Source of the DNA: Candidatus Moraniibacteriota bacterium
Lineage (GTDB): Bacteria; Patescibacteriota; Minisyncoccia; Moranbacterales; UBA2206
Reading direction: 5' to 3'
Assembly (NCBI GenBank): GCA_963775955.1
Contig: CAVZKT010000002.1
Location: forward strand, 7,994 to 71,993
Length of the DNA: 64,000 nt
How positions within the stretch are numbered: the first letter of the stretch is position 1; each line of letters starts with the position of its first letter. A model generated the notes under the pieces. The model made no database searches. It worked only from the letters and a program-made list of their open reading frames with translations, and was not told where the DNA came from. This document shows, piece by piece, positions 3,961 through 61,364 of the stretch. The translations under genes were made by a program, and so were the position numbers.

Positions 3961-6083
3961 TCATTTGATAATTTTTGCCGCCGCCTTGATGGACAAATTT
4001 ATCCGGCCCTGGCTGTCAATTTCCCGGACTTTGACCGGAACGATATCGCCGATTTGAACCACGTCTTCAACTTTTTCTACGCGGTGGTCAGCCAGTTCCG
4101 AAATATGAATCAAGCCTTCCTGCCCGGGCAGAATTTCCGCAAAGGCGCCGAAGTTCATAATACGGGTGATTTTAGCGTTGAATATTTCGCCGGCTTTTAC
4201 TTCGTGCGTCAGGTTATCAATCCATTCCTGCGCTTTTTTGGCGGCTACTGCGTCCGGAGAAGTGATAAAAACCGAACCGTCGTCCTCAATGTCAATTTGC
4301 ACGCCGGTTTCGTCAATAATAGCGTTGATAATTTTGCCTCCCGTGCCGATGACATTCCTGATTTTGTCCGGGTTAATCTTCATAATGATAATTCTTGGCG
4401 CATATTGGCTCATTTCCGCTCGCGGAGCAGGGATTGCAACCGTAATTTTCTCCATAATTTCCATTCTGTTTTCCCGGGATTGCTCCAGAACGGCCTTCAG
4501 CATTTCCAGCGTTACGCCATCCAACTTTACATCCATTTGCAGCGCTGTGATGCCGATTTCGGTGCCAGCCGCTTTAAAGTCCATGTCGCCATAATGGTCT
4601 TCCAATCCTTGGATATCGGTGAGAACTTTGAATTTTCCGTCATGTTCCCGACGATAATTCCCATGGCAATTCCGCTAACCGGGCTTTTGATTGGCACGCC
4701 GGCATCCATAAGCGACAGAGTTGATCCGCAAGTGGAAGCCATTGAAGAAGATCCATTGGAGGAAAGCATTTCGGAAACTAAAAGAATAGTGTAGGGAAAT
4801 TCATCTTTGGGAGGCAAAACTGGAACTAAAGCTTTTTCGGCCAGAGCGCCGTGGCCGACTTCGCGCCGTCCCGGTCCGCGCATCGGCTTCACTTCTCCCA
4901 CTGAATACGGAGGAAAATTGTAATGATGGATATATCTTTTTTTCATATCCACTTCCATTGTGTCAATCACCTGTTCATCGCCAGGAGAACCCAGAGTTGT
5001 GACAGTCAGAGCTTGTGTTTCTCCGCGGGTGAATAAGTCCGGTGCCGTGCGTTCTGGGCAAAATTCCAACTTGGCATGCAATTTGTCGAATTTCATTTAA
5101 TTTGCGGCCGTCCGGGCGTTGTTCTTTTTCCTAAAATATTCTGATGCACAATTTCATCCGAAGTTTCTTCAAAAACTTGCTCGGCAATTTCTTTTAATGT
5201 CTTTTCACGTTCGGAGCTTCTGGAAAAGTTTCTTTGATATAGGCGTTGACTTTTTCCTTGATAGCTTTGATTTTTTCCTCAATCACTTGCTTATCTTGGG
5301 TCATACAGGGCTTCAGCCAGGTTTTCTGCCAGCAAAATTTCTTTTATTTTAGCTTCAAATTCAGGCGTGCCTTGCAATAAGGCCGGTTCTGATTTGGCTT
5401 TGCCAACTTCTTTTTGAATATCTTCAATAAAAGCGGCAATTTTTTTGACGGCTTCATGGCCGAATTCAAAAGCTGGACAGAATTTCTGCTTCCGGAACTT
5501 CCTTGGCGGCTGTTTCAATCATATTGATTTTATCCTTGGTTCCGGAAAGCACGATGTCAAAATCTCCGTCCGTAGTTTCGCCATTGACCGGGTTCAAAAT
5601 AAATTCGCCCTTAACTCTGCCGATGCGCACCGCGCCAACCGGGCCGTTCCAAGGAATATTGGAAATAGAAAGGGCGGCGGAAGCGGCGATGATTGCCAAG
5701 ATATCCGGATCGTTTTCTCCATCATAAGAAAAAACCGTGACAATAACTTGCACTTCATTGCGCATCCGGTGGTTAAAAAGCGGGCGGATGGTGCGGTCAA
5801 CCATTCTTCCGGAAAGAACGGCGTCGTCCGAAGGGCGGCCTTCTCTTTTAATAAATCTTGAGCCTTTGATTTTTCCGGCGGCATAATATCTTTCTTCAAA
5901 ATCCACCATCAGCGGGAAATATCCGCTGATTCTGGACGCGCCTTTGCTCATAGTGGCGGCGGCTAAAACAACCGTGTCGCCATAGCGCACAGTTACTGAT
6001 CCATTGGCCTGTCCGGCTAAAAGCCCGGCTTCAACCTCAAGAATTCTCCCTCCGATTTGGAGAGACCATTTTTTATGTTCCAT
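3961..6083 (-). CDS. pnp: polynucleotide phosphorylase (interrupted by at least 3 frame changes)
   Basis: Fragments 5466-6083, 5291-5518, 4527-5096 and 3961-4605 give, in order, RNase PH domain 1, the helical linker, RNase PH domain 2 (RPDGR...[15 protein letters not shown]), then KH and S1 domains. Confidence 0.9.
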
Positions 6084-6730: not shown

Positions 6731-7228
6731 CTATATCAAAAACTTCCTTTTATTTTCCGAAAGACTGGTGAATTCGTCAGCGGCTTCAATGAGTTTGGAG
6801 CTGGTGGATTCTTTAAAGGCCATCACTTCCACAATACAACCGGTGGTGTTTTGAATATATTCCACGACTGGAATATAATCTCCGTCGCCGGAAACTAAAA
6901 CTAAAGCATCCAGGCTCTTGGACATTTTGATGGCGTCCACCGCGATGCCGACATCCCAGTCGCCTTTTTTGGCTCCGCCGGGAAAGATTTGCAGATCTTT
7001 GGTTTTTACTTCAAAGCCTTGTTTTCCGAGCGCTTCAAAAAATTTTTCTTCCTGGCCTTCAACAGTTTTGATTCCATAAGCAATCGCGCGGATCAGTTTT
7101 CTTCCCGAAACCGCGTCCAAAAGGACGTTTTTGAAATTAACTTTTTTTCCGTGAAGCACGCGGGCGCTGTAATAGAGATTTTGAATGTCCACTAATACAC
7201 CGACTCTTTGTTCTTTGAACTTTGCCAT
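6731..7228 (-). CDS. NYN-domain (LabA-like) protein
   Basis: MAKFKEQRVGVLVDIQNLYYSAR...LVSGDGDYIPVVEYIQ. The internal ATG at 7226-7228 is the more likely start than the track's 7279. Confidence 0.75.
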   Translation of the reverse strand: MAKFKEQRVGVLVDIQNLYYSARVLHGKKVNFKNVLLDAVSGRKLIRAIAYGIKTVEGQEEKFFEALGKQGFEVKTKDLQIFPGGAKKGDWDVGIAVDAIKMSKSLDALVLVSGDGDYIPVVEYIQNTTGCIVEVMAFKESTSSKLIEAADEFTSLSENKRKFLI

Positions 7229-7706: not shown

Positions 7707-7913
7707 ATGTTTTGGGGCTGAACATTCGTTCCGATCCGCCGCGGCGGACGAAAACCAATGTCCGCTAAATTAAAATAAATTATTTTTCCAATGCGTCTTT
7801 ATGTCATCGTAAATTTTTTAGGGTCTGATAAGCTTCCATAATTTCAATGCTGACGTTGCACTGTCTTTCAGGGCTTCCTGCTATATTAGTTCTTGAATAT
7901 CTATGTCCTTTCC

Positions 7914-8084
7914 CTAAAATCCGCGGTGAATTTCTTGCCTATTAATCACATCTATATCTTCAGTGCTAAATATTTTTAGCGCAGCAATTCCACTATATCT
8001 TCGGCATATGCCTTTAATTAGAACATTCTTTTTCCGCTTCTTAGTTGCTTTTTCTGGAGTTAATTCCGAATTTTCTTCAAACAT
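7914..8084 (-). CDS. small hypothetical ORF (56 aa, possibly truncated by an indel)
   Basis: Below the ORF-track cutoff. MFEENSELTPEKATKKRKKNVLIKGICRRYSGIAALKIFSTEDIDVINRQEIHRGF. Weak. Confidence 0.2.
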   Translation of the reverse strand: MFEENSELTPEKATKKRKKNVLIKGICRRYSGIAALKIFSTEDIDVINRQEIHRGF

Positions 8085-8142: not shown

Positions 8143-8320
8143 TTTACTTTTTCTTTCCGCAAGAAAAAGTAACAAAAAGAACTCTCAGCAGGACAAAATT
8201 TCCAAACAAATCCTACGCTCGTTCGCTAAAATTTTTGGTTGCCCCGAGACGGACCTAAAAATTTCTTGATGCTCTCTCACTTGAGTTTGTGGTTGGAAAT
8301 TTTGTATGCTGAAGAATTTT
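8143..8320 (+). repeat. ~190-bp long-hairpin repeat, copy 1 of 3
   Basis: CTTTTTCTTTCCGCAAGAAAAAGTAACAAAAAGAACTCTCAGCAGGACAAAATTTCCAAACAAAT... is repeated almost verbatim at 43452 and (more diverged) 46851. The left and right halves are imperfect reverse complements. Confidence 0.8.
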
Positions 8321-8351
8321 TTAAAATATGCTAGAATGGATAAGTTATTTA

Positions 8352-8451
8352 CCCCGTTAGAGTTTTAATATGAATTATGCGGGGATAAAGCAGTAATCTT
8401 TTTTGGTTTTTCAATATTAAATAAATTTAATTTTGTAAAACTCTAACGGGG
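8352..8451 (+). repeat. CCCCGTTAGA-type inverted-repeat element (16-bp perfect arms)
   Basis: CCCCGTTAGAGTTTTA at 8352-8367 and TAAAACTCTAACGGGG at 8436-8451 flank an AT-rich 68-bp core. The right arm abuts the pcrA GTG start. Confidence 0.8.
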
Positions 8452-10715
8452 TGGAAAACGACATTCTAAAAAATCTGAATCCGGCGCAGAGGGAAGCCGT
8501 GGAAACCACTGAAGGGGCGGTTTTGATCATTGCCGGAGCCGGCTCGGGCAAGACCAGGGCGCTCACGCACCGCGTGGCCTATCTGATCAAAGAAAAAAAG
8601 ATTCCGCCGCGAAATATTCTGGCGGTGACTTTTACCAACAAAGCGGCGCAAGAAATGAAAGAACGAGTGCGGGTATTATTAGATGTTAATAACCAAAAAC
8701 TAAAAACTAAAAACTACGAACTTCCAATAATGGGCACTTTCCATTCTATCTGCGCGCGGATATTGCGCCACGAAATTGAAAAATTGGGCTATAAAAAAAC
8801 TTTCAATATTTTTGACGACCAGGACCAACTGGCGACGATGAAAAAGGCGATGAAGGAAAGTGAGATGGACATGGAGCAATTTAAACCGCAGGCGATGCTT
8901 AATGCGATTTCCAAAGCCAAGAATGAACTGATTGACGCGGCGACTACAGAGAATCCATCGGCAGTTATTATGAAGAAACGGTGTCCAAGGCCTATATTGC
9001 TTACCAAAAAAAACTCAAAGAGCAAAACGCGCTTGATTTTGACGATATTATCATGCTCACCGTCCAATTATTCCGGAAATTTCCGGAAATTTTGGAAAAA
9101 TACCAGAATTTTTTCCGCTATATCATGGTGGACGAATACCAAGACACTAATCGCGCGCAATATACCTTGATTAATATGCTAGCCAAAAGGAACGGCAACA
9201 TCTGCGTCGTGGGCGATGACTGGCAGGGTATATATTCCTGGCGCGGAGCGAACATCCAAAATATCCTGGATTTTGAAAAGGATTATCCTAGCGCCAAAGT
9301 CATAAAATTGGAGCAAAACTACCGTTCCACGCAGAACATTTTGGATGCGGCCTATGGCGTAATTTCCAAAAATATCAACCGCAAGGACAAAAAAATTTGG
9401 ACCCAGAGCGCCAGCGGACAACTCATAACCTCCTATGAAGCCGGAGATGAAAGAGATGAGGCGGAATTTGTGGTGAAGGAAGTTTTGCAAGAGAGAGAAA
9501 AAGAAAAACACAAATTTTCCGATTTTGTAGTTTTGTATCGTACCAACGCGCAATCCCGCATCATGGAAGAAGTGATGCTTCAAAATTCAATTCCCTATAG
9601 GATAATCGGCGGAATAAAATTTTATTTGCGCAAGGAAATAAAAGACATTATCGCCTATTTGCGCCTCATTCAAAATTTCAATGACGCGGTATCGCTGGAG
9701 AGAATAATAAATGAACCCAAAAGAGGCATTGGAGAAGTTACGCTTAAGCATTGGGTTGAAACTTTCAAAAGAAAATAATATTGATCTGATTAATTGCGGA
9801 TTTACAAATCCGAAATCCGAAATCCTAAATCCGAAATAAATTCAAATCCGCCAACCGGCGGACAAAATTCAAAAATCTCGACTGGAAAATATTTTTAAGT
9901 TTTGTGATTTTATCAAAAGGATGAATGAGGCGATCCGCAAATTGCCGCTGACTGATTTTATGGAAAAAGTCTTTGCAGAGTCCGGGTATGAAAAATTTCT
10001 TTTGGACGGCACGGAAGAGGGAGAAATGCGGCGGGAGAATATCCGGGAGCTGCTGACAGTGGCCAAAAAATACACAGAATATAAAGGCGAAGAAGCCCTG
10101 CGGATGTTTTTGGAAGAAGTCGCGCTGGCATCTGACACGGACAATGTGAACCAAAACCTGGATGCCGTGCACCTTATGACGCTTCACAGCGCCAAGGGAT
10201 TGGAATTTAAAGTCGTTTTTATTGCCGGCCTGGAAGAAGGAATCCTGCCTCATTCCCGCAGTATGCTGGATCAGGGCGAAATGGAAGAGGAAAGGCGGCT
10301 GATGTATGTCGGCATCACGCGCGCCAAAGAAAAAGTTTATCTGTTGTTTACCAGCCAGCGCAATATTTTTGGTTCCACGCAAGTTAATCCGCCATCAAGA
10401 TTTCTGGATGATATACCGCCGCACCTTGTGCGGAATTTCCAATTTCCAATTTCCAATTTCCAAACAAATTCCAAATTACAAAATCAAATCCAAAAATTTC
10501 CCCTCACCCGTCCCGATATACATCAGGACACCCTCTCCCGAAAGGAGAGGGAAATACGGAATAAAAACACTTTTAAAGATGGTGATAGGGTAAAACACAA
10601 AATTTTCGGCGAGGGCCTAATAGTTTCCTCGCAAGGCGATACACTCACAATCGCTTTTTCCAAATCCGGGCTAAAGAAGCTTTCCGCTTCCATCGCGCCG
10701 CTTAAGAAGATTTAG
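8451..10715 (+). CDS. pcrA: ATP-dependent DNA helicase PcrA/UvrD (interrupted: frame changes near 8941 and 9765, in-frame TAA at 9837)
   Basis: Fragments 8451-9170, 8981-9778 and 9921-10715. Motifs AGAGSGKT, TFHSICARIL, VDEYQDTN, VGDDWQGIYSWRGA, LEQNYRST, TLHSAKGLEF, MYVGITRAKE. Confidence 0.9.
9806..9837 (+). repeat. tandem heptamer repeat (AAATCCG)x4.5 inside pcrA
   Basis: AAATCCGAAATCCGAAATCCTAAATCCGAAAT, followed by hairpin TCCGCCAACCGGCGGA. Confidence 0.8.
10432..10498 (+). repeat. tandem heptamer repeat (TTCCAAT)n and derivatives inside pcrA C-terminus
   Basis: GGAATTTCCAATTTCCAATTTCCAATTTCCAAACAAATTCCAAATTACAAAATCAAATCC, translated as RNFQFPISNFQTNSKLQNQIQ. Confidence 0.8.
10499..10552 (+). 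repeat. double-hairpin GC-rich element, copy in pcrA
   Basis: TCCCCTCACCCGTCCCGATATACATCAGGACACCCTCTCCCGAAAGGAGAGGG, same architecture as 25343-25390 and (inverted) 12796-12845. Confidence 0.75.
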
Positions 10716-32318: not shown

Positions 32319-33852
32319 ATGATCAAAAAAATTCCAACTCAAGTCATTGAAGTTTTACAAAAACTGGAAGAATCAGGCTTCGAGGCTTTTATCGTGGGCG
32401 GATGCGTGCGGGATTTGCTCACATTGTGGTGAGCCTGTGAACCAAAAGACTGGGATGTAGCGACTAATGCCAAGCCGGAAGAAGTGCAAAAAATATTCCC
32501 GGACAGTTTTTATGAAAATGAATTTGGAACGGTCGGAGTGAAAGTAAAGCCGTTTATTAAAAATGGAAATCCGAATCGTGAGCATGACGTGATAGAAGTA
32601 ACCACCTATCGCATTGAATCGAAATATTCCGACAAGCGCCGGCCGGATAAAGTTGAATTTGCAAAAACATTAGAGGAAGATTTATCAAGAAGGGATTTTA
32701 CCATCAACGCGATCGCATTAAAACTCGTAACTCATAACGCACAACTCGACACCCGAAGAGGAAAAAATAGCTACGAGCTACGAGCTATGGGTTACGAGAT
32801 CATTGATCCATATGATGGTCAGAAAGATATTAAGAAAAAAATAATCCGCGCAGTGGGTGACCCGCATGAAAGATTTGATGAAGATGCTTGCGGATGATGC
32901 GAGCGGTGCGGTTTCACGCGGAGCTGGGATATAAAATTGAAAAAAATACTTTTGAAGCCATTAAAAAAATATAGCCGGGGATTTAAAACACATTGCTCTT
33001 GAAAGAATAAAAGACGAACTGGCCAAAATTATATTATCCGACAATCCATGCTGAAGGCATTGATATGCTGCATAAAACTAAATCTTCTGGAATATATTAT
33101 TCCGGAATTGGAAAAGGGCGTGGGCGTGAAACAAAACCGCCATCATATCTATACGATATACAAACACAGCATTTTATCTTTAAAACATTGTCCTTCGCAA
33201 AAAATTGGAAGTGCGCTTGGCTGCGCTTCTGCATGACATTGCTAAGCCGCAAACCAAAAGAGGCGAAGGCGAATATGCGACTTTCTATAACCACGATCAT
33301 GTGGGTGCGCGGGTGGCGGCCAAAATTCTTGAGCGTCTGCGTTTTTCACGTGAAACAATTGAAAAGGTGAAACTTCTCGTGGATAATCATATGTTTTATT
33401 ACAATCCGGAAGAAGTGGGAGCCAGTTCCGTCAGAAAATTAATTCAAAAAGTCGGCTTGGAAAATATGAAAGATTTGATTGATGTGCGCATTGCCGATCG
33501 TTTGGGTTCGGGCGTGCCGAAGGCCAAGCCGTATAAATTGCGCCACTTGGAATATATGATTGAAAAAGTTTCCCACGATGCCATTTCCGTAAAGATGCTA
33601 AAAATCAACGGCAATGATCTGATGAAAGAATTAAATTTAAAACCCGGTCCCAAAATCGGCGCGATTCTGGATGTTTTGCTCTCGGAAGTTATTGAAGATG
33701 CTTCCAAAAATAATCGCGAGCATCTTTTAACGCGCGCTAAAGAATTGGATAAGGAGGATTTGAAAAAACTCCGCCAGATGGCGAAGGTAAAGATTGAAGA
33801 GAAAAAAGAAGAGGAAGACAAGGAAATTAAGAGAAAACATTGGGTGAAGTAG
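32319..33852 (+). CDS. cca: CCA-adding enzyme / poly(A) polymerase family with HD domain (5-6 frame changes)
   Basis: Pieces: MIKKIPTQVIEVLQKLEESGFEAFIVGGCVRDLL / PKDWDVATNAKPEEVQKIF...RDFTINAIAL...IIDPYDGQKDIKKKIIRAVGDPHERFDEDA / LRMMRAVRF.. / ...LAALLHDIAKP...YNHDHVGA. Confidence 0.85.
32724..32798 (+). repeat. 75-nt heptad-word hairpin inserted in frame in cca
   Basis: CTCGTAACTCATAACGCACAACTCGAC...AGCTACGAGCTACGAGCTATGGGTTACGAG encodes VTHNAQLDTRRGKNSYELRAMGY between the conserved RDFTINA and IIDP motifs. Confidence 0.8.
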
Positions 33853-33943
33853 GACCATTAGCTCAGTTGATTACCCGCCTCGGCTCGTGGAAGACACTTT
33901 GCGAGGCAGGGAGCACTGCATTTTCACCCCGCACCAAATTTAT

Positions 33944-34129
33944 GGATGCGTAGCTCAACCGGTTAGAGCGCTGCATTTTCATCCCGTTAGATATATGGAC
34001 GATTAGCTCAGTTGGTTAGAGCGTTGCATTCACATTGCAAAAGTCACTGGTTCGAGTCCAGTATCGTCCACAGAAAATCTAACGGGACAAGCATTGCAGG
34101 GGTCACAAGTTCAAGTCTTGTGCCATCCA
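33944..34129 (+). other. middle interrupted tRNA-like gene (same UUC anticodon arm) containing tRNA-Val(CAC)
   Basis: 5' part 33944-33981, 3' part 34094-34129. Bounding repeat CCCGTTAGAT (33983-33992) / ATCTAACGGG (34077-34086). Acceptor pairs 5/7. Confidence 0.5.
33997..34070 (+). tRNA. tRNA-Val(CAC)
   Basis: GGACGAT-TA-GCTC-AGTTGGTTA-GAGC-G-TTGCA-TTCACAT-TGCAA-AAGTC-ACTGG-TTCGAGT-CCAGT-ATCGTCC-A. Confidence 0.9.
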
Positions 34130-34230
34130 CATAAAATTGGTGCGGGGCAGGTTGCAGGGGTCAGTGGTCCGAGTCCGCTAGTGACCACAAATACTAAAAA
34201 CCAAATACAAAAAACTAAAAACTAACCAAA

Positions 34231-34846
34231 ATGGCTTCGCAAGTTTCCCACATAATTTACGCCCGCAAATATTTCGAAAAAAATCCGGCTTTGCCTAATT
34301 TTGAAGATGAATTTATGCTGGGCTGTGTTTTTCCGGACATCCGCCGGATTGACGAAAGTATAAAAAGAAAAGACACGCATCGCTGTTTTTCGCCGCTGGA
34401 TTTGAATTTTTCAGGACTTTCTCCGTTCCAGGCCGGCTGGAAATTTCATTTGTATTGCGATATGAAGCGGGAGGAGATTTTAAATAAATATAAATTTTAT
34501 GAAATTCCCGGAACTGCTGATTTTTGGCACCAGTCAGCCAAACAACTGGAAGATGAAATTATTTATGAAGAGTATAATAATTGGGAAAAAGTCGTGCATT
34601 ATTTCAATAATGTTCCAAAGATAGAAATAGGCATAGGATGTTACACATGAAACTTTCCAGCTGTGGTATGCGATAATCGCCAAATATATTGAGAAAAAAC
34701 CGGACAACAAATCAGCGCATATTTTTTTATCAAAACAACTGTCATGGGCGGAAAAAGCCGACGATATAGTCAAATCAGTTGACAATTTGCGCAAAAATGA
34801 GAGAGTTATAGGGATACTCAGGAAGGTGAAGGATGAAATATTATAG
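34231..34846 (+). CDS. hypothetical protein (one frameshift near 34645)
   Basis: ORF 34231-34650 continues as HETFQLWYAIIAKYIEKKPDNKSAHIFLSKQLSWAEKADDIVKSVDNLRKNERVIGILRKVKDEIL in another frame. Confidence 0.5.
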
Positions 34847-35010: not shown

Positions 35011-35146
35011 CTTTATTTTTCGGAGCGTGGTATAGTGGTATTACCTGCAGCACCAGAGCGAGGCGCTCGGTGCGAGGCAGGCGCCCGTTAAATACCGGAG
35101 CATAGTATACCGGTAGTACGCGCCCCCTGCCCCGTTAAATATTTTT

Positions 35147-35217
35147 CGGGATATAGTATAGTGGTAGTACGCGCGATTCGGGTTCGTGAAGTCCCAGTTC
35201 GATTCCGGGTATCCCGA
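35147..35217 (+). tRNA. tRNA-Pro(CGG)
   Basis: CGGGATA-TA-GTAT-AGTGGTA-GTAC-G-CGCGA-TTCGGGT-TCGTG-AAGT-CCCAG-TTCGATT-CCGGG-TATCCCG-A (one A:C in the T-stem). Confidence 0.8.
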
Positions 35218-35449
35218 CATCGAAAAATTTAACGGGGTGAAGGTGGGTGTAGACCGGGTTCGATTCCCGGCATCCCGACCGAAAATTTAACAGGGTGAAG
35301 GTTCGTGAAAACCGGGCTCGCCCCGCGCCATTTCTCGGGATAATTGTGGTTTTATTAGGCATTAAGGCGAAGCCGCTTCGCTTTAGTTCTGATGAATATC
35401 ACAGATTATGTTTGGAAATGGTGCGGGGTGAAATTCCCGGCATCCCGAC

Positions 35450-35743
35450 ATGAAAATAATTATAAAAAAAATTAAAGAAAATCCGACAAGTCTGCTGCGG
35501 ATGGCCGGCTATATTTTTCAGCGCAACGAGGGCGAAGAAATGAGTTTTATCCGTCCTTTGGCGCGCGCGGGCTTTCCGCGTTTCCATATGTATGCTAGTG
35601 TGGCTGGAACTGATTTAGCAATAAACATCCATCTGGATCAGAAAAAAGAAACCTACGGAAATTCTAATCGCCATCATGGAGAATATGGAGATGAAGGCGC
35701 ATTAAAGGCGGAGATTGAGAGAATAAAAAGTATTTTGCAATAA
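35450..35743 (+). CDS. hypothetical protein
   Basis: 97-aa ORF between tRNA clusters. Confidence 0.5.
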   Translation: MKIIIKKIKENPTSLLRMAGYIFQRNEGEEMSFIRPLARAGFPRFHMYASVAGTDLAINIHLDQKKETYGNSNRHHGEYGDEGALKAEIERIKSILQ

Positions 35744-42566: not shown

Positions 42567-43394
42567 TTATTTTGAATCCCTTAATTTTTTTAGAAGTTTT
42601 ATGTCCTCCTCCACTTCCGGCCATTCGGTTTCGCAGAGCATGTCAATATTATTTTTTTTAGCGAAGGCGGCGATGTTTTCAAAAGCTTTGAGGCCGATTT
42701 TACCTTTGCCTATGTGTTCGTGGCGGTCTTTATTGGAACCGCAATCAGATTGGCTGTCGTTGGCGTGGATGAGTTTTATATTTTCAATCCCAATGTCTTT
42801 GTCAACTTTTTTAATTGCAGTTTCAAAATCCCGCCAATCATATCCTGATGCAAAAGAATGCTGGGTGTCCAAGCAAATGCCGGCTATGGCGGGGCTTTTC
42901 ACGCCGTCAATAATTTCTTTCAATTCTTTCAAATCATCACCGATAATTTCTCCCGCGCCGGCGCTGTTTTCCAATAATAATCTAGTGCTTCCGGAATATC
43001 CTTCCAAAGTTTTTTTGAGCATCTCAATGGTTTTTTTTATGGCTTCTATTTGACCAAGATCTTTGGCAGTGCCAATGTGGGTCATGACATATTTGGCGCC
43101 GAGGAGGCTGCCTCTTTCCAGTTCATCGCGGATAGTTTTTACAGATCCATAGCGAATGCGGCTATTAGCAGAAGCCAGGTTGATATAGTAGGGGGTGTGA
43201 ATATAGACATCTCGTAACTCGTAACTCGTAACTCTTAACTTAAATTCATGAATTAATTCAGGAGTTAACTCTGGCGCTTTGCCGCCCTGGGGCGCGCGGG
43301 TGAAAATTTGAATGACTTCGCATCCTAAAGCATGCCCGTTCTTAGGGGCGTTCCAAATTCCGCCGGCGATGGAAACATGACAGCCGATGTGCAT
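42567..43394 (-). CDS. nfo: endonuclease IV
   Basis: IGCHVSIAGG, HTPYYINLAS, ENSAGAG, CLDTQHSFASGYD, HANDS. Contains the (GAGTTAC)x3 repeat encoding LRVTSYELRD. Confidence 0.88.
   Translation of the reverse strand: MHIGCHVSIAGGIWNAPKNGHALGCEVIQIFTRAPQGGKAPELTPELIHEFKLRVTSYELRDVYIHTPYYINLASANSRIRYGSVKTIRDELERGSLLGAKYVMTHIGTAKDLGQIEAIKKTIEMLKKTLEGYSGSTRLLLENSAGAGEIIGDDLKELKEIIDGVKSPAIAGICLDTQHSFASGYDWRDFETAIKKVDKDIGIENIKLIHANDSQSDCGSNKDRHEHIGKGKIGLKAFENIAAFAKKNNIDMLCETEWPEVEEDIKLLKKLRDSK
43211..43239. repeat. tandem heptamer CTCGTAA/CTCGTAA/CTCGTAA inside nfo
   Basis: CTCGTAACTCGTAACTCGTAACTCTTAAC. Confidence 0.8.
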
Positions 43395-43451
43395 GTTTAT
43401 ATTTTAGCATATAATTGCAATTTCCACTTTCTTTTGGCAGCAAAGCCTTCC

Positions 43452-43630
43452 TTTTACTTTTTCTTTCCGCAAGAAAAAGTAACAAAAAGAACTCTCAGCC
43501 GGACAAAATTTCCAAACAAATTCTGCGTTCGCGAGCTAAAAGTTCACGGCTGCTTCCGCCAGGGGCGGAATCAAGGAACTTTTTTAACGCTCACTCGCTT
43601 GAATTTCGGGGAAATTTTATAGGCTGAATG
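43452..43630 (+). repeat. ~190-bp long-hairpin repeat, copy 2 of 3
   Basis: The first about 75 nt are near-identical to 8143-8217. Apex differs (TCCGCCAGGGGCGGA). Confidence 0.8.
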
Positions 43631-43652
43631 TTTTTTAAAAAATTTATATAAG

Positions 43653-45050: not shown

Positions 45051-46835
45051 TTATAAACTTTTTTTCTTTACCTCTTCTTTATATGAAACAAGAACATCGC
45101 CCTCTTTGATTTTCGTTTCGCCGTCAAAAGTAATTCCACATTCATTGCCGGAGGCCACTTCGTCCACATTTACTTTGTTCTGCTGAAGATTGAAAAGTTT
45201 TCCCTTGCCAATCACGGCGTCGCTCCGCATAACTTCAATGAGCGAACTGTTTGCAATTTTTCCCGAAGCAACCTTGCCGCCGACGATCATATCTTTTTTC
45301 CCGGTCTTGAAAATGGCCAGCACCTTCATTTTACCGAGATCCGTTCTTTCAATTTCCGGAGGCAGCATGGCGATCAGCTTGTTTTTAATGTCAGTCACCA
45401 GCTCGTAAATAATCTTGTAATTTTTGATTTCAACCCTGCTTGATTCGGCCAGCCGGCTTGCGACCGGGGTGGTTTCCACATTAAATCCGTAAATAATGGC
45501 GCCGGAGGCTTGCGCCAGGCGCACCTCGGATTCAGTGGTGTTTCCCACGCCGGTAGCGATGTAATGGACTGCCACTTCGTCTGATTTTATTTCAGCCAGT
45601 ATTTGTTCCACGGCTTCCAGCGATCCCTGCACGTCGGCTTTTAAAATTATATTCAGTTTTTTTATTTTTTCGTCGGCGATGGATTTGAAAAGTTTTTGCG
45701 CGGTAAAATCTCCCATCTTCCCGGTTTGGGTCTTAGAAAGACCGCGGAGCTCCTCTAATTTTGATTTAGCCGACTTTCCTGTCACTGCCTGCAAGATGTC
45801 ATTGGCATTAGGGGCGATGTTGAGGCCGATTATGGCAACCGGAGCGGAAGGTCCGGCCTCCAGAATTTTTTTTCCGGTAAAGTCCTCGATTTTTCTTACG
45901 CGGCCATGGGCGGAGCCGGCAATAATATCCTGGCCTTCTTTAAGTATTCCGGTTTTTATAAGAACAATAGCCACCGGGCCCTTGTGAGGATCAAGATGCG
46001 ATTCAAGGACTATGCCCAAAGCCGGATTTTTGCCCGCGGCTTTAAAATCTTCAACTTCGGAAACCAAAAGAATATTTTCAAGCAAGCCGTCGATGCCGAT
46101 ATTTTGTTTGGCGCTGATTTCAGAACTCAAAACCTGTCCGCCCCAGTCTTCCAGAAGAATGCCATGGTCAGCCAGATCTTTTTTGACTCTCTGGATATTG
46201 GCTTCGGGCTTGTCAATTTTGTTGATAGCGACAATAGTTGGAATTTTTTTAGCCAGCAGATACTCAATAACTTCTTTGGTTTGCGGGCGCACGCCGTCAT
46301 CGGCCGCGACAACCAAAACAGCGATGTCAGCGATGCTTACGCCGCGTTCGCGCATAGCGCTGAAAGCTTCATGTCCCGGAGTATCCACAAAAGTAATAAG
46401 CTGTCCCTTCTTTTTAACTTGATAAGCGCGGATATGCTGGGTAATGCCGCCGGCTTCTTTAGCCGCCACATTAGTTTTGCGGATGGTATCCAAAAGCGTG
46501 GTTTTTCCGTGATCAACATGTCCGAGAATAGTGACAACCGGCGGACGCGGATGCAAATTTTCTCCAGATTCCTTTTCCTTTTTTAAAATTTCCAGAAGCT
46601 TTTCCAGGGTCATGGCGGCTCCCGCCTCAATAATTTCTTCTGAAGCTTCATATCCCAAATCCTGGGCGATTATGGAAGCGGTCTCAAAATCAATTTGCTC
46701 ATTGATGGTGGCTAGAATCCCGTTTTTCATAAGTTCCGTGATCACAGTGTTAAGCGACAAGCCCAAAAGCTCGCTGAATTTTTTGACAGTGATGGTGGGA
46801 GGAAGATTTACTTTTTTCTTTTCTATTTCAGGCAT
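45051..46835 (-). CDS. infB: translation initiation factor IF-2
   Basis: RPPVVTILGHVDHGKTTLLD, DTPGHEAF, NKIDK, 594 aa. Confidence 0.95.
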   Translation of the reverse strand: MPEIEKKKVNLPPTITVKKFSELLGLSLNTVITELMKNGILATINEQIDFETASIIAQDLGYEASEEIIEAGAAMTLEKLLEILKKEKESGENLHPRPPVVTILGHVDHGKTTLLDTIRKTNVAAKEAGGITQHIRAYQVKKKGQLITFVDTPGHEAFSAMRERGVSIADIAVLVVAADDGVRPQTKEVIEYLLAKKIPTIVAINKIDKPEANIQRVKKDLADHGILLEDWGGQVLSSEISAKQNIGIDGLLENILLVSEVEDFKAAGKNPALGIVLESHLDPHKGPVAIVLIKTGILKEGQDIIAGSAHGRVRKIEDFTGKKILEAGPSAPVAIIGLNIAPNANDILQAVTGKSAKSKLEELRGLSKTQTGKMGDFTAQKLFKSIADEKIKKLNIILKADVQGSLEAVEQILAEIKSDEVAVHYIATGVGNTTESEVRLAQASGAIIYGFNVETTPVASRLAESSRVEIKNYKIIYELVTDIKNKLIAMLPPEIERTDLGKMKVLAIFKTGKKDMIVGGKVASGKIANSSLIEVMRSDAVIGKGKLFNLQQNKVNVDEVASGNECGITFDGETKIKEGDVLVSYKEEVKKKSL

Positions 46836-46850
46836 AAATATTTTATTTAA

Positions 46851-47040
46851 CTTTCTTTGGCCGCAAAGAAAGTTACAAAGAAACTCTCGAGCAGGCGAAA
46901 TATTCTAACAAATTCTGCGCTCGTTCGCTAAAATTTTTGGTTGCCCCGCTCCTCGCCCGTAGGCTACGGCCGAGGGGCGGACCTAAAATTTTTTAACGCT
47001 CTCTTGCTTGAATTTGTAATAGAATATTTTGCACGCTCGA
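46851..47040 (+). repeat. ~190-bp long-hairpin repeat, copy 3 of 3 (most diverged)
   Basis: CTTTCTTTGGCCGCAAAGAAAGTTACAAAGAAACTCTCGAGCAGGCGAAATATTCTAACAAATTCTGCGCTCGTTCGCTAAAATTTTTGGTTGCCCC... Confidence 0.75.
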
Positions 47041-47072
47041 TCTTATTTTAAAAAATATATTTTTTTGATTTT

Positions 47073-47597
47073 TCAATTTATCTTTTTCGGTTCCTGTAGC
47101 ATGGCGATTTTGATGGCCTGCTCTTCTTCTTCGGTGAGCGGATATTTTTCTGATTTTCCGGCAGCGACAGCTTTGGCATAAATCCGGGTGCCTTCGCGGG
47201 TGTATAAGGAAGAAATGATAATCCCGCTATTTTTTCCATTGAGAAGCGCAATGGCGAAGCTTTGATCTCCGCCGACTTCCTTAAAAGGATTAAAACGTAC
47301 CAGTCCGGTTTTATGCAATCCGCGGAATGATAAGCTGTTTATTTGATTGGAAATTCCATAAAGCTCCTGAATTTCTTTGTCCAAAGTTTTAAGACTCCCG
47401 GCCTGATTCAGGAGGATTTCTTCCAAGTTTTTAATCTTATTTCCGGAAAAAAGCAAATTGTTCTTCTTTTTAATTCTTGAGATGCCGACCTGCAGGAAAA
47501 TATTCCAAAGCAGAATAACGCCGGAAACAGCGGCTAAGGCGATAATAATATTTTCTGAATTGTTTTTGATTAGTTCCACCCCATTAGAGTTTTCCAA
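47073..47597 (-). CDS. DUF4446-like membrane-anchored protein
   Basis: N-terminal TM. GLVRFNPFKEVGGDQSFAIALLNGKNSGIIISSLYTREGTRIYAKAV. Confidence 0.6.
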   Translation of the reverse strand: MENSNGVELIKNNSENIIIALAAVSGVILLWNIFLQVGISRIKKKNNLLFSGNKIKNLEEILLNQAGSLKTLDKEIQELYGISNQINSLSFRGLHKTGLVRFNPFKEVGGDQSFAIALLNGKNSGIIISSLYTREGTRIYAKAVAAGKSEKYPLTEEEEQAIKIAMLQEPKKIN

Positions 47598-47642
47598 AAT
47601 TATGAAAAATAATATTGGAATCGTAAAAATAATTAGACGCAG

Positions 47643-47676
47643 CCCCGTTTTAAATTAGATAAAAGCTCTAACGGGG
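47643..47676. repeat. short CCCCGTT...TCTAACGGGG hairpin (truncated member of the family)
   Basis: CCCCGTTTTAAATTAGATAAAAGCTCTAACGGGG, 45 nt upstream of the minus-strand gene start at 47597. Confidence 0.65.
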
Positions 47677-61184: not shown

Positions 61185-61364
61185 AATAAAAAACAGCCCC
61201 GAAGGGCTATTTCCGACCACGTTCCTATGCTGGATGTCCCAGCCACACCACCATCCGGTGATAGTTCAGAATACAGGTCTTTGTGCTTATAATACTAGCA
61301 TAACTAAAAAATATTTCAAGTTAAATTGTCCACAGCCTAAAATATGGCTTAAATAAGGAATTTT

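Follow-up and report, generated by a model that had tools for sequence, protein, structure and literature searches.

An uncatalogued family of structured intergenic repeats in Candidatus Moranbacteria and a phage

RESULTS

Three repeats of one contig belong to a wider family

The subject of this study is a long-hairpin repeat, present in three copies in a 64,000-nt stretch of DNA from a Candidatus Moraniibacteriota bacterium (assembly GCA_963775955.1, contig CAVZKT010000002.1, positions 7,994–71,993), subsequently called the window. We found these repeats to be members of a real and so far uncatalogued structured repeat family of Candidatus Moranbacteria (Parcubacteria, candidate phyla radiation (CPR)) and at least one phage, a conclusion that is well supported. 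As to their nature we lean, if only slightly, towards a non-autonomous, mobile and structure-constrained intergenic element of unusual asymmetric design, similar to miniature inverted-repeat transposable elements (MITEs) or to REPINs (hairpin-forming doublets of repetitive extragenic palindromic (REP) sequences).

A first-pass annotation of the window had placed three copies in one orientation at 8143–8320, 43452–43630 and 46851–47040. Covariance model (CM) and pattern searches bear this out: the CM places the cores of copies 1, 2 and 3 at 8144–8314 (170.8 bits with model R1, E = 2e-37), 43454–43629 (109.5 bits, E = 4e-23) and 46848–47041 (153.3 bits, E = 2.5e-33), all on the minus strand, and no fourth copy appeared in a CM search of all 64 kb. 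An anchored pattern of 21 bases matched only these three copies (0.00 matches expected from 100 dinucleotide-preserving shuffles), and a second pattern from the right arm gave the three window matches versus 0.17 expected. A repeat finder puts the copies in one family (D2, D12), and their three-way alignment has a mean column identity of 77%.

On the plus strand each copy consists of a 12-bp A/T hairpin (TTACTTTTTCTT-TCCGC-AAGAAAAAGTAA), a linker (CAAAAAGAACTC) and an imperfect hairpin of ~130 nt with a variable GC-rich stem-loop as its apex. Read on the minus strand of the window, which we call S, the small hairpin lies at the 3′ end and the order is an AT-rich lead-in, the ~130-nt hairpin, a U-rich linker GAGAGUUCUUUUUGU and the 12-bp A/U hairpin. 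In copy 1 the small hairpin spans 8144–8172, the linker 8173–8183, the long hairpin ~8184–8313 and the apex 8237–8255; the small hairpin and apex lie at 43454–43482 and ~43545–43576 in copy 2, and at 46848–46875 and 46939–46983 in copy 3, whose apex is extended. The sequences given in the first-pass annotation for the first hairpin, including the variant in copy 3, and for the apices are correct, and the apices are indeed variable. Beyond its right ends the inserted DNA runs on for ~20–30 nt, through an AT-rich motif of T-run, A-run and ATAT (...TTTTTTAAAAAA..ATAT) that is found beyond the right end of all three copies. On the 5′ side of the folded strand this extension covers 8315–8336 in copy 1 (AATTTTTTAAAATATGCTAGAA on the plus strand), 43630–43652 in copy 2, where it occupies the entire gap to the stop codon (43653) of a DHH-family gene, and 47042–47072 in copy 3, where comparison with empty sites (see below) identifies ~31 nt of AT-rich DNA as part of the insert.

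Outside the window we found ~45 further copies in metagenome-assembled genomes (MAGs) of Moranbacteria/Parcubacteria and in metagenomes, plus four in a phage structural-gene module; loci or contigs of this kind, from genomes, metagenomes or IMG/VR, carry labels of the type L041. A scan of species-representative (GTDB) genomes gave 24 matches, nine of which were true copies: they come from the Parcubacteria MAG SO_2017_GW1_11 (three contigs), Moraniibacteriota UBA11098 (three contigs), DBS1-3.bin117 (two contigs) and SO_2016_GW1_96, and the other matches were due to chance, with no further similarity. The JGI metagenomes added ~20 true copies. Judged by the names of homologues of its proteins, the window itself belongs to Candidatus Moranbacteria / Parcubacteria. 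Model R1, built from eight well-aligned copies read on the minus strand of the window, recovers every known copy with 70–193 bits and also copies that the exact pattern had missed: L041 carries three in 13.7 kb, L030, L032 and L066 carry two each, the two copies of L044 stand head to head, and L022 has a second copy tail to tail with the first. Copy length in the family is ~170–225 nt.

The first-pass annotation had proposed a search of Rfam, which we ran on release 15, 6S RNA, riboswitches and leaders included. It yielded nothing at gathering score for the repeats in the window and nothing relevant for copy 1 at E values up to 10; the phage contig and nine loci that hold diverse copies, searched at E up to 1, gave no match. 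Likewise, blastn against the INPHARED phages and PLSDB plasmids gave no match to the element, and we found no description of the repeat family in the literature searched.

The fold is kept by compensatory change

Fold energies of the window copies lie 4–8 standard deviations below those of shuffled sequences on either strand. Because a plain MAFFT alignment of 27 copies gave only eight pairs in RNAalifold, it was replaced by a minus-strand seed of eight copies with CM realignment. In the resulting CM alignment of 32 distinct copies, which is fitted to the model and therefore favours the structure, 93.7% of the pair cells hold standard pairs versus 79% in column shuffles and 32–54% when the partners are slid by 1–3 columns. 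Changes on both sides are seen at 40 of the 60 pairs (22.8 in shuffles) and in 249 cells (65 in shuffles), and not one of 500 shuffles reaches any of the observed measures of pairing or covariation. The small hairpin taken alone shows double changes at 9 of its 12 pairs with 99.5% pairing. The stems are largely ungapped, and folds of single sequences give the same architecture in every subfamily. These data show that the fold is kept by compensatory change: the changes that had looked compensatory in the window alone, such as TTTCC/GGAAA versus TATTC/GAATA, are real, and the first-pass suggestion of a structured RNA or a MITE, as opposed to random similarity, was right in that the family is genuine.

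The most conserved segments are internal: the upper helix contributes GAGCGTTAAAAAA and AAATTTTAGC, the middle helix ACAAATT/AATTTGT, and the U-rich linker belongs to them too. On S, the internal segments GAGCGUUAAAAAA and UUUUAGC of the long hairpin are almost invariant and its basal and middle stems covary freely; basal stem and lower arm vary with covariation between subfamilies. The element ends also covary across subfamilies (TCAGCC/GGCTGA, TCGAGC/GCTCGA, TCTGCC/GGCAGA) and are not conserved as sequence. Many copies end on S with a GAAnnnGUAAU tail.

S is probably the strand that folds. In 35 of 38 copies, all four phage copies included, the fold of S is more stable than that of its complement, typically by 5–13 kcal/mol. 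In the CM alignment we counted 108 G·U cells versus 17 A·C cells, an A·C cell being a G·U pair on the other strand, and one internal U·G is retained in 31 of 32 copies.

Strong covariation, strand-specific G·U pairs, best conservation in internal segments and a fold asymmetry that extends to divergent subfamilies and the phage are also what speaks for the main rival explanation. According to it, the repeats are a family of small structured RNA genes on S, ~170 nt each, which act in trans, for example by association of the invariant internal segments with a conserved protein, and which grew by duplication, the phage having copied the family. About half of the copies moreover carry a TAAAAT/TAAAAA box 2–5 nt upstream of the core. 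However, no conserved sigma-70 promoter was found at a fixed distance upstream on either strand, several copies lie only 14–23 nt from an upstream stop codon or terminator, and no canonical terminator follows the small hairpin. With the points from synteny given below, we consider such RNA genes unlikely.

Copies are gained and lost between related genomes

Syntenic loci with 70–78% nucleotide identity to the window allowed a comparison of individual junctions, and all three window sites turned out to be empty, or to hold a mini-hairpin only, in relatives. The minus strand of the window reads DUF4446 – copy 3 – infB – rbfA – DHH-family gene – copy 2 – nfo. At the DUF4446–infB junction the window alone is filled: 31 nt, the core and 12 nt separate the two genes, versus 7–12 nt from stop to ATG at the empty sites of L041, L061, L062, L063 and L067. 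L065 has 50 nt and no copy at this position, and L064 carries an unrelated palindromic insert of 128 nt (AAATCCAAA...TTTGGATTT, 5585–5712). The next junction, infB–rbfA, is filled in L041, L025 and L066 and empty (3–9 nt) in the window, L061, L063, L065 and L067. Between the DHH-family gene and nfo, the site of copy 2, the window, L025, L038, L041 and L066 are filled, and L061 and L065 have only the mini-hairpin. The copy 1 site is filled in the window and empty in L068 and L069. Conversely, a tRNA-Leu junction that is filled in L041 and L029 holds an ordinary terminator in the window.

The mini-hairpin of L061 and L065 (ATTCAGAC-TTTA-GTCTGAAT plus a T-run) stands right after the DHH stop codon, and its stem equals the base of the element. 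As a 25-nt sequence (ATTCAGACTTTAGTCTGAATTTTTT) it is identical in L061 (13756–13780) and L065 (4000–4024), two genomes that are only ~76% identical; it could have arisen from the element by deletion, or be a terminator-like precursor of it.

One further candidate for a filled/empty pair, L031 and the window, was dropped since there are tRNA fragments at the window site. These tRNA-like fragments, together with repeated 5′ and 3′ halves of tRNAs, surround tRNA-Val and tRNA-Pro at 33852–34231 and 35014–35451 of the window (D8, D14, D15); in the syntenic region of L031 their place is taken by another tRNA and a copy of the element.

Fragments accompany some of the full copies. Next to copy 2, at 43424–43445, an older copy has left a remnant (CTTTGCTGCCAAAAGAAAGTGG, read on the minus strand) that corresponds to the 3′ half of a small hairpin; it belongs to another subfamily (L044b/L041b type) and is also present downstream of the counterparts of copy 2 in L025 and L066. 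A longer 3′ remnant was seen in L030. These pieces look like debris of earlier copies. A bias towards 5′ truncation, the signature of retroposition, was not established among the fragments, of which there is a handful of true ones, derived from both 3′ and 5′ ends.

Particular intergenic junctions thus acquire or lose copies from one related genome to another, and near-identical copies occur at unrelated loci. Copy density differs greatly between relatives, from three in 64 kb (window) and three in 13.7 kb (L041) to none in ~107 kb (L061–L065 and L067–L069). For RNA genes this is a difficulty: in close relatives all three window sites and those ~107 kb are devoid of the element, and the remnants as well as the head-to-head and tail-to-tail pairs resemble insertion debris. 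A mobile element, on the other hand, fits the patchy lineage-specific abundance, the precise empty sites, the nested debris, the arbitrary orientation, the presence in phage and the other palindromic insertions in these genomes.

Copies are better conserved than their flanks

Copies at the same junction are far more similar than the DNA around them: copy 2 is 94.7% identical to L025a (flanks 73.7%) and 91.4% identical to L066b (flanks 70.4%), and L041a and L025b share 91.8% (flanks 76.9%). The 8 nt that separate copy 2 from the adjacent remnant have diverged. Copies of the same subfamily at unrelated loci elsewhere (L024 after rplL, L030b, L035) are 94–96% identical to copy 2. The excess over the flanks indicates either strong purifying selection or recent replacement by a horizontally spreading subfamily; for the RNA-gene explanation, the 91–95% identity of same-junction copies versus 70–74% in the flanks is a point in its favour.

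Divergent copies in a phage structural module

By scanning IMG/VR with the conserved internal segments we identified contig IMGVR_UViG_3300040801_005162 (L056, 10.9 kb), in which the CM finds four divergent copies with 33–59 bits, all in one orientation, at 1089–1254, 7029–7204, 7859–8034 and 10278–10445. According to Pfam its ORFs (open reading frames) include major capsid protein E, two cement proteins, a Mu-type portal and the large terminase. Two near-identical copies lie in sense orientation directly 3′ of the capsid gene and of a cement gene, respectively; one copy stands among genes of the other strand. Phages may in this way transfer the element between hosts.

Position and orientation relative to genes

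In order to relate the element to its neighbours, each locus was oriented on the element and the adjoining ORFs were listed; they were identified by eye from their translations, Pfam being applied to window and phage proteins only. The gene neighbours named in the first-pass annotation were confirmed: a small ORF starting at 8084, nfo (42567–43394, start 43394, Pfam AP_endonuc_2) and infB (45051–46835, start 46835, Pfam IF-2), with 59, 59 and 12 nt between the minus-strand start and the small hairpin of copies 1, 2 and 3, respectively. The annotation had noted that all three copies lie just upstream of minus-strand gene starts, which does not hold in general. Among ~30 copies outside the window, the same and the opposite direction relative to the neighbours are about equally frequent once orthologous copies are collapsed. 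Genes in S direction adjoin the infB operon copies and copies after RecG, RNase J, UDG and KsgA; genes opposite to S adjoin the copy between atpG and atpD and copies after uvrA, uvrC, holA, PBP (penicillin-binding protein), a ribokinase-like gene and the CCA-adding enzyme. The proximity to minus-strand starts is a coincidence of the window. Covariation and a relation to gene starts were the two features by which the annotation had proposed to judge the family; the former is supported by the shuffle controls, the latter fails.

The placement of all three window copies 12–59 nt upstream of minus-strand starts would suit a cis-regulator in the 5′ untranslated region (5′-UTR), i.e. a riboswitch or leader of the next minus-strand gene. 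However, the downstream genes are unrelated, elsewhere the element is equally often convergent or antisense to its neighbour, and relatives have the same genes without the element. Between copy 2 and nfo there is an extended –10 box (TGCTAAAAT, window 43401–43409, minus strand) 6 nt before the nfo ATG (43394–43392), and L041, L061 and L038 have the same box, which makes a leaderless or near-leaderless nfo mRNA likely. The conserved promoter block of the unit formed by the small ORF and rpsO begins 6 nt past copy 1. With promoters between element and gene, copies 1 and 2 are not in the 5′ leader of the adjoining gene, and since the same operon carries the element at differing junctions in different genomes, we reject a 5′-UTR regulator of the downstream gene as very improbable.

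In many cases the element directly adjoins a canonical terminator hairpin or a tRNA gene. Several features would suit another cis-acting role. The element often starts 1–14 nt from a stop codon on either side; on S a U-rich tract follows the long hairpin in all copies, and roughly two thirds of them have a T-run after it on the other strand. One could imagine a portable cis-acting RNA module, a hairpin flanked by A-tract and U-tract that is kept because it is useful, either as bidirectional terminator/attenuator or as an RNase III-type processing or 3′-stabilizing site. Phage copies directly after the major capsid and cement-protein genes agree with this, as does the mini-hairpin with T-run of L061/L065 at the copy 2 site, whose stem matches the element base. 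On the other hand, some operons harbour the element upstream of essential genes (DUF4446–infB in the window; infB–rbfA in L041, L025 and L066), where it cannot be a strong terminator. It is often inserted beside an existing canonical terminator, copy 1 is situated in a region of divergent promoters without any gene end, and a consensus terminator scan calls none of the three window copies. Also, a function independent of direction leaves the strand-specific G·U pairs unexplained. We give such a module little credence as an explanation of the family; secondarily, the element may act as a terminator, an attenuator or a processing site.

The surroundings of copy 1, a uvrD-like gene on the plus strand and the small ORF followed by rpsO on the minus strand, showed some peculiarities of their own. 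The small ORF (MFEEN..., 7914–8084, minus) has a start and promoter block that are conserved in L068 and L069, where it encodes 79–92 aa; in the window it encodes 56 aa, with TAG where L069 has TGG, and may be a pseudogene or a shorter form. Just upstream of rpsO (~7715–7800, minus) there is a hairpin GCGGACATTGGTTTTCGTCCGCCGCGGCGGATCGGAACGAATGTTCAGC that is nearly identical in L068 and partly conserved in L069; it could be a leader for S15 or terminate the small ORF. Two overlapping frames (8451–9170 and 8981–9778, plus strand) make up the UvrD/PcrA-like helicase, which is a single 768-aa gene in L068; this suggests a frameshift or an assembly error.

Other repeats and RNAs in these genomes

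A second, unrelated palindromic family of ~100 nt with the ends CCCGTTAGAGTTTT...AAAACTCTAACGGG occurs at 8354–8449 and 47581–47674 of the window, where one copy abuts the start of the uvrD-like gene and one lies at the DUF4446 start. In L061 (13799–13903) it is inserted at the nfo ATG with a duplication of ATGAA on both sides, and it looks like a classical MITE with target duplication. Another unrelated palindromic insert (CCCCCACACCAATTTA...TAAATTGGTGTGGGGG) is located upstream of the rpsO unit in L069 (~2452–2560); this insert and that of L064 sit at the same intergenic sites as the element. Several hairpin-repeat families appear to coexist in these genomes. The window further contains a DUF3800-IX RNA (RF02968) at 61211–61279 (minus), with 48.8 bits and above gathering score, and four copies of a 159-nt unit between 51245 and 53537 with a spacing of 578–788 nt (repeat family D1), which probably reflect tandem paralogous genes.

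DISCUSSION

If the repeats are non-autonomous mobile elements, as we are inclined to think, they would depend on a fold of single-stranded nucleic acid, either DNA or RNA: the G·U pairs are strand-specific, and classical terminal inverted repeats and target duplications were not found. The mechanism of mobility that we infer would be nearer to that of REPINs or the IS200 type than to cut-and-paste transposition of a MITE by a DDE transposase. After insertion, the element would be transcribed together with the adjacent genes, forming a long hairpin beside a U-tract, and it may secondarily attenuate, process or stabilize transcripts.

Some observations weigh against this interpretation. No autonomous partner (transposase or reverse transcriptase) turned up in the loci around the copies, to which this search was confined. 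Flanking direct repeats of at least 7 bp accompany 22.6% of the copies versus 25.6% of controls with mismatched flanks, figures that refer to approximate element ends in AT-rich flanks. Conservation peaks internally instead of at the termini, as is seen more often in functional RNAs than in substrates of a transposase. Two conserved wobble positions account for about half of the G·U excess; with these disregarded, little of it is left in a comparison of the arms that is neutral with regard to scoring. Finally, the 91–95% identity of copies with 70–74% in the flanks reflects either purifying selection on the whole sequence or recent horizontal replacement. Two candidate target duplications, a 9–11-nt repeat around L030a and TAAAATA around copy 3, were within chance expectation.

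Defined terminal inverted repeats, target-site duplications and descent from known insertion sequences (ISs) characterize classical MITEs. Our element shares with them that it is short, non-coding (apex indels exclude an ORF) and multi-copy, with filled and empty sites. However, flanking repeats are not enriched, the ends covary and no parent IS has come to light, with none beside any copy in the loci examined. Since the entire element forms a hairpin, its ends are inverted repeats by nature; terminal inverted repeats other than the two arms of this hairpin were not found. For lack of a detectable target duplication and a known parent IS, the element falls outside the definition of a classical DDE MITE. 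Comparable too are repeats such as Correia/NEMIS, ERIC, RUP, BOX and the Rickettsia RPE, intergenic sequences of 100–200 nt that form long hairpins when transcribed and are polymorphic between strains. Bacterial MITEs and long palindromic repeats of this kind are transcribed along with adjacent genes and in some cases function as terminators, promoters or RNase III sites; with a length of ~100–200 nt, an intergenic position, a long hairpin and presence/absence polymorphism our element resembles them.

Palindrome-associated elements derived from IS200/IS605 (PATEs) have strand-specific secondary structure in common with our element, and like it they show neither terminal inverted repeats nor a target duplication. 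Roughly half of the copies, but none of the three in the window, have TTAC 9–11 nt outside the small hairpin, which recalls TTAC as the target of IS608. In contrast to IS200/IS605 elements, which have similar small subterminal hairpins at both ends and a fixed target of 4–5 nt directly at the left end, our element has one small and one very long hairpin, and neither a TnpA nor a TnpB gene adjoins any of the ~45 copies. Hairpins are also known from phages: T7 RNase III sites and the PeSL cassettes of T4-type phages are repeated intergenic hairpins that are phage-specific and much shorter. The L056 copies resemble them in that they recur between late genes, in sense orientation and directly after capsid or decoration genes, like processing or stabilizing hairpins; the difference is that the element is common to host chromosomes and has both orientations there.

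The comparison with REPINs, which are mobilized by REP-associated tyrosine transposases (RAYTs), draws in part on PMC3116915 and PMC3733652. REPINs are like our element non-coding, intergenic and multi-copy, with a long hairpin kept by compensatory change; they lack a classical target duplication, are thought to act single-stranded and differ in abundance between lineages. They are symmetric doublets of REPs of 20–40 nt with a GTAG or CGTC head, whereas our element is asymmetric: only one of its sides carries the additional 12-bp hairpin, and its conserved internal segments are not palindromic. Its consensus contains no GTAG/CGTC head, and no RAYT gene was linked to it in the loci examined. 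The definitions of REPINs and of IS200/IS605 derivatives do not cover the element.

Other classes were discarded. A peptide-coding, type I toxin-like reading fails because every frame is broken by apex indels. An integron attC site would show RYYYAAC/GTTRRRY core sites at the hairpin base and a setting among gene cassettes; here, the GTTAAAA-like segment is internal and not basal, and the neighbours are core housekeeping genes (infB, rbfA, atpG/atpD, uvrA, rplL). Retron msr/msd, 6S RNA and T-box were ruled out on architecture, copy number and context.

A further possibility, which we regard as doubtful, combines mobility with an RNA function: the element could be a mobile gene for a structured S-strand RNA with a function of its own, for example binding of a conserved host or phage protein via the invariant segments GAGCGUUAAAAAA and UUUUAGC, that is spread between CPR bacteria by phages, possibly through an RNA or single-stranded DNA intermediate. 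Such a mobile RNA gene would jointly explain the strand-specific wobbles, the 91–95% identity across genomes whose genes are ~72% identical, and the insertion polymorphism, and it would be of high interest if the S-strand RNA does have its own function.

Should the family be only a MITE-like repeat, it matters mainly for annotation and for avoiding false 'riboswitch' calls; in any case, its covariance model can serve to annotate these genomes, and the repeat itself to trace recent genetic exchange. The genomes of CPR bacteria are very small and are considered poor in mobile elements and in known non-coding RNAs. Here, an element common to Moranbacteria chromosomes and a phage invades essential operons (DUF4446–infB–rbfA) and is far better conserved than the surrounding genes, and it provides a test case for distinguishing selfish DNA, mobile RNA genes and domesticated transcript-processing signals.

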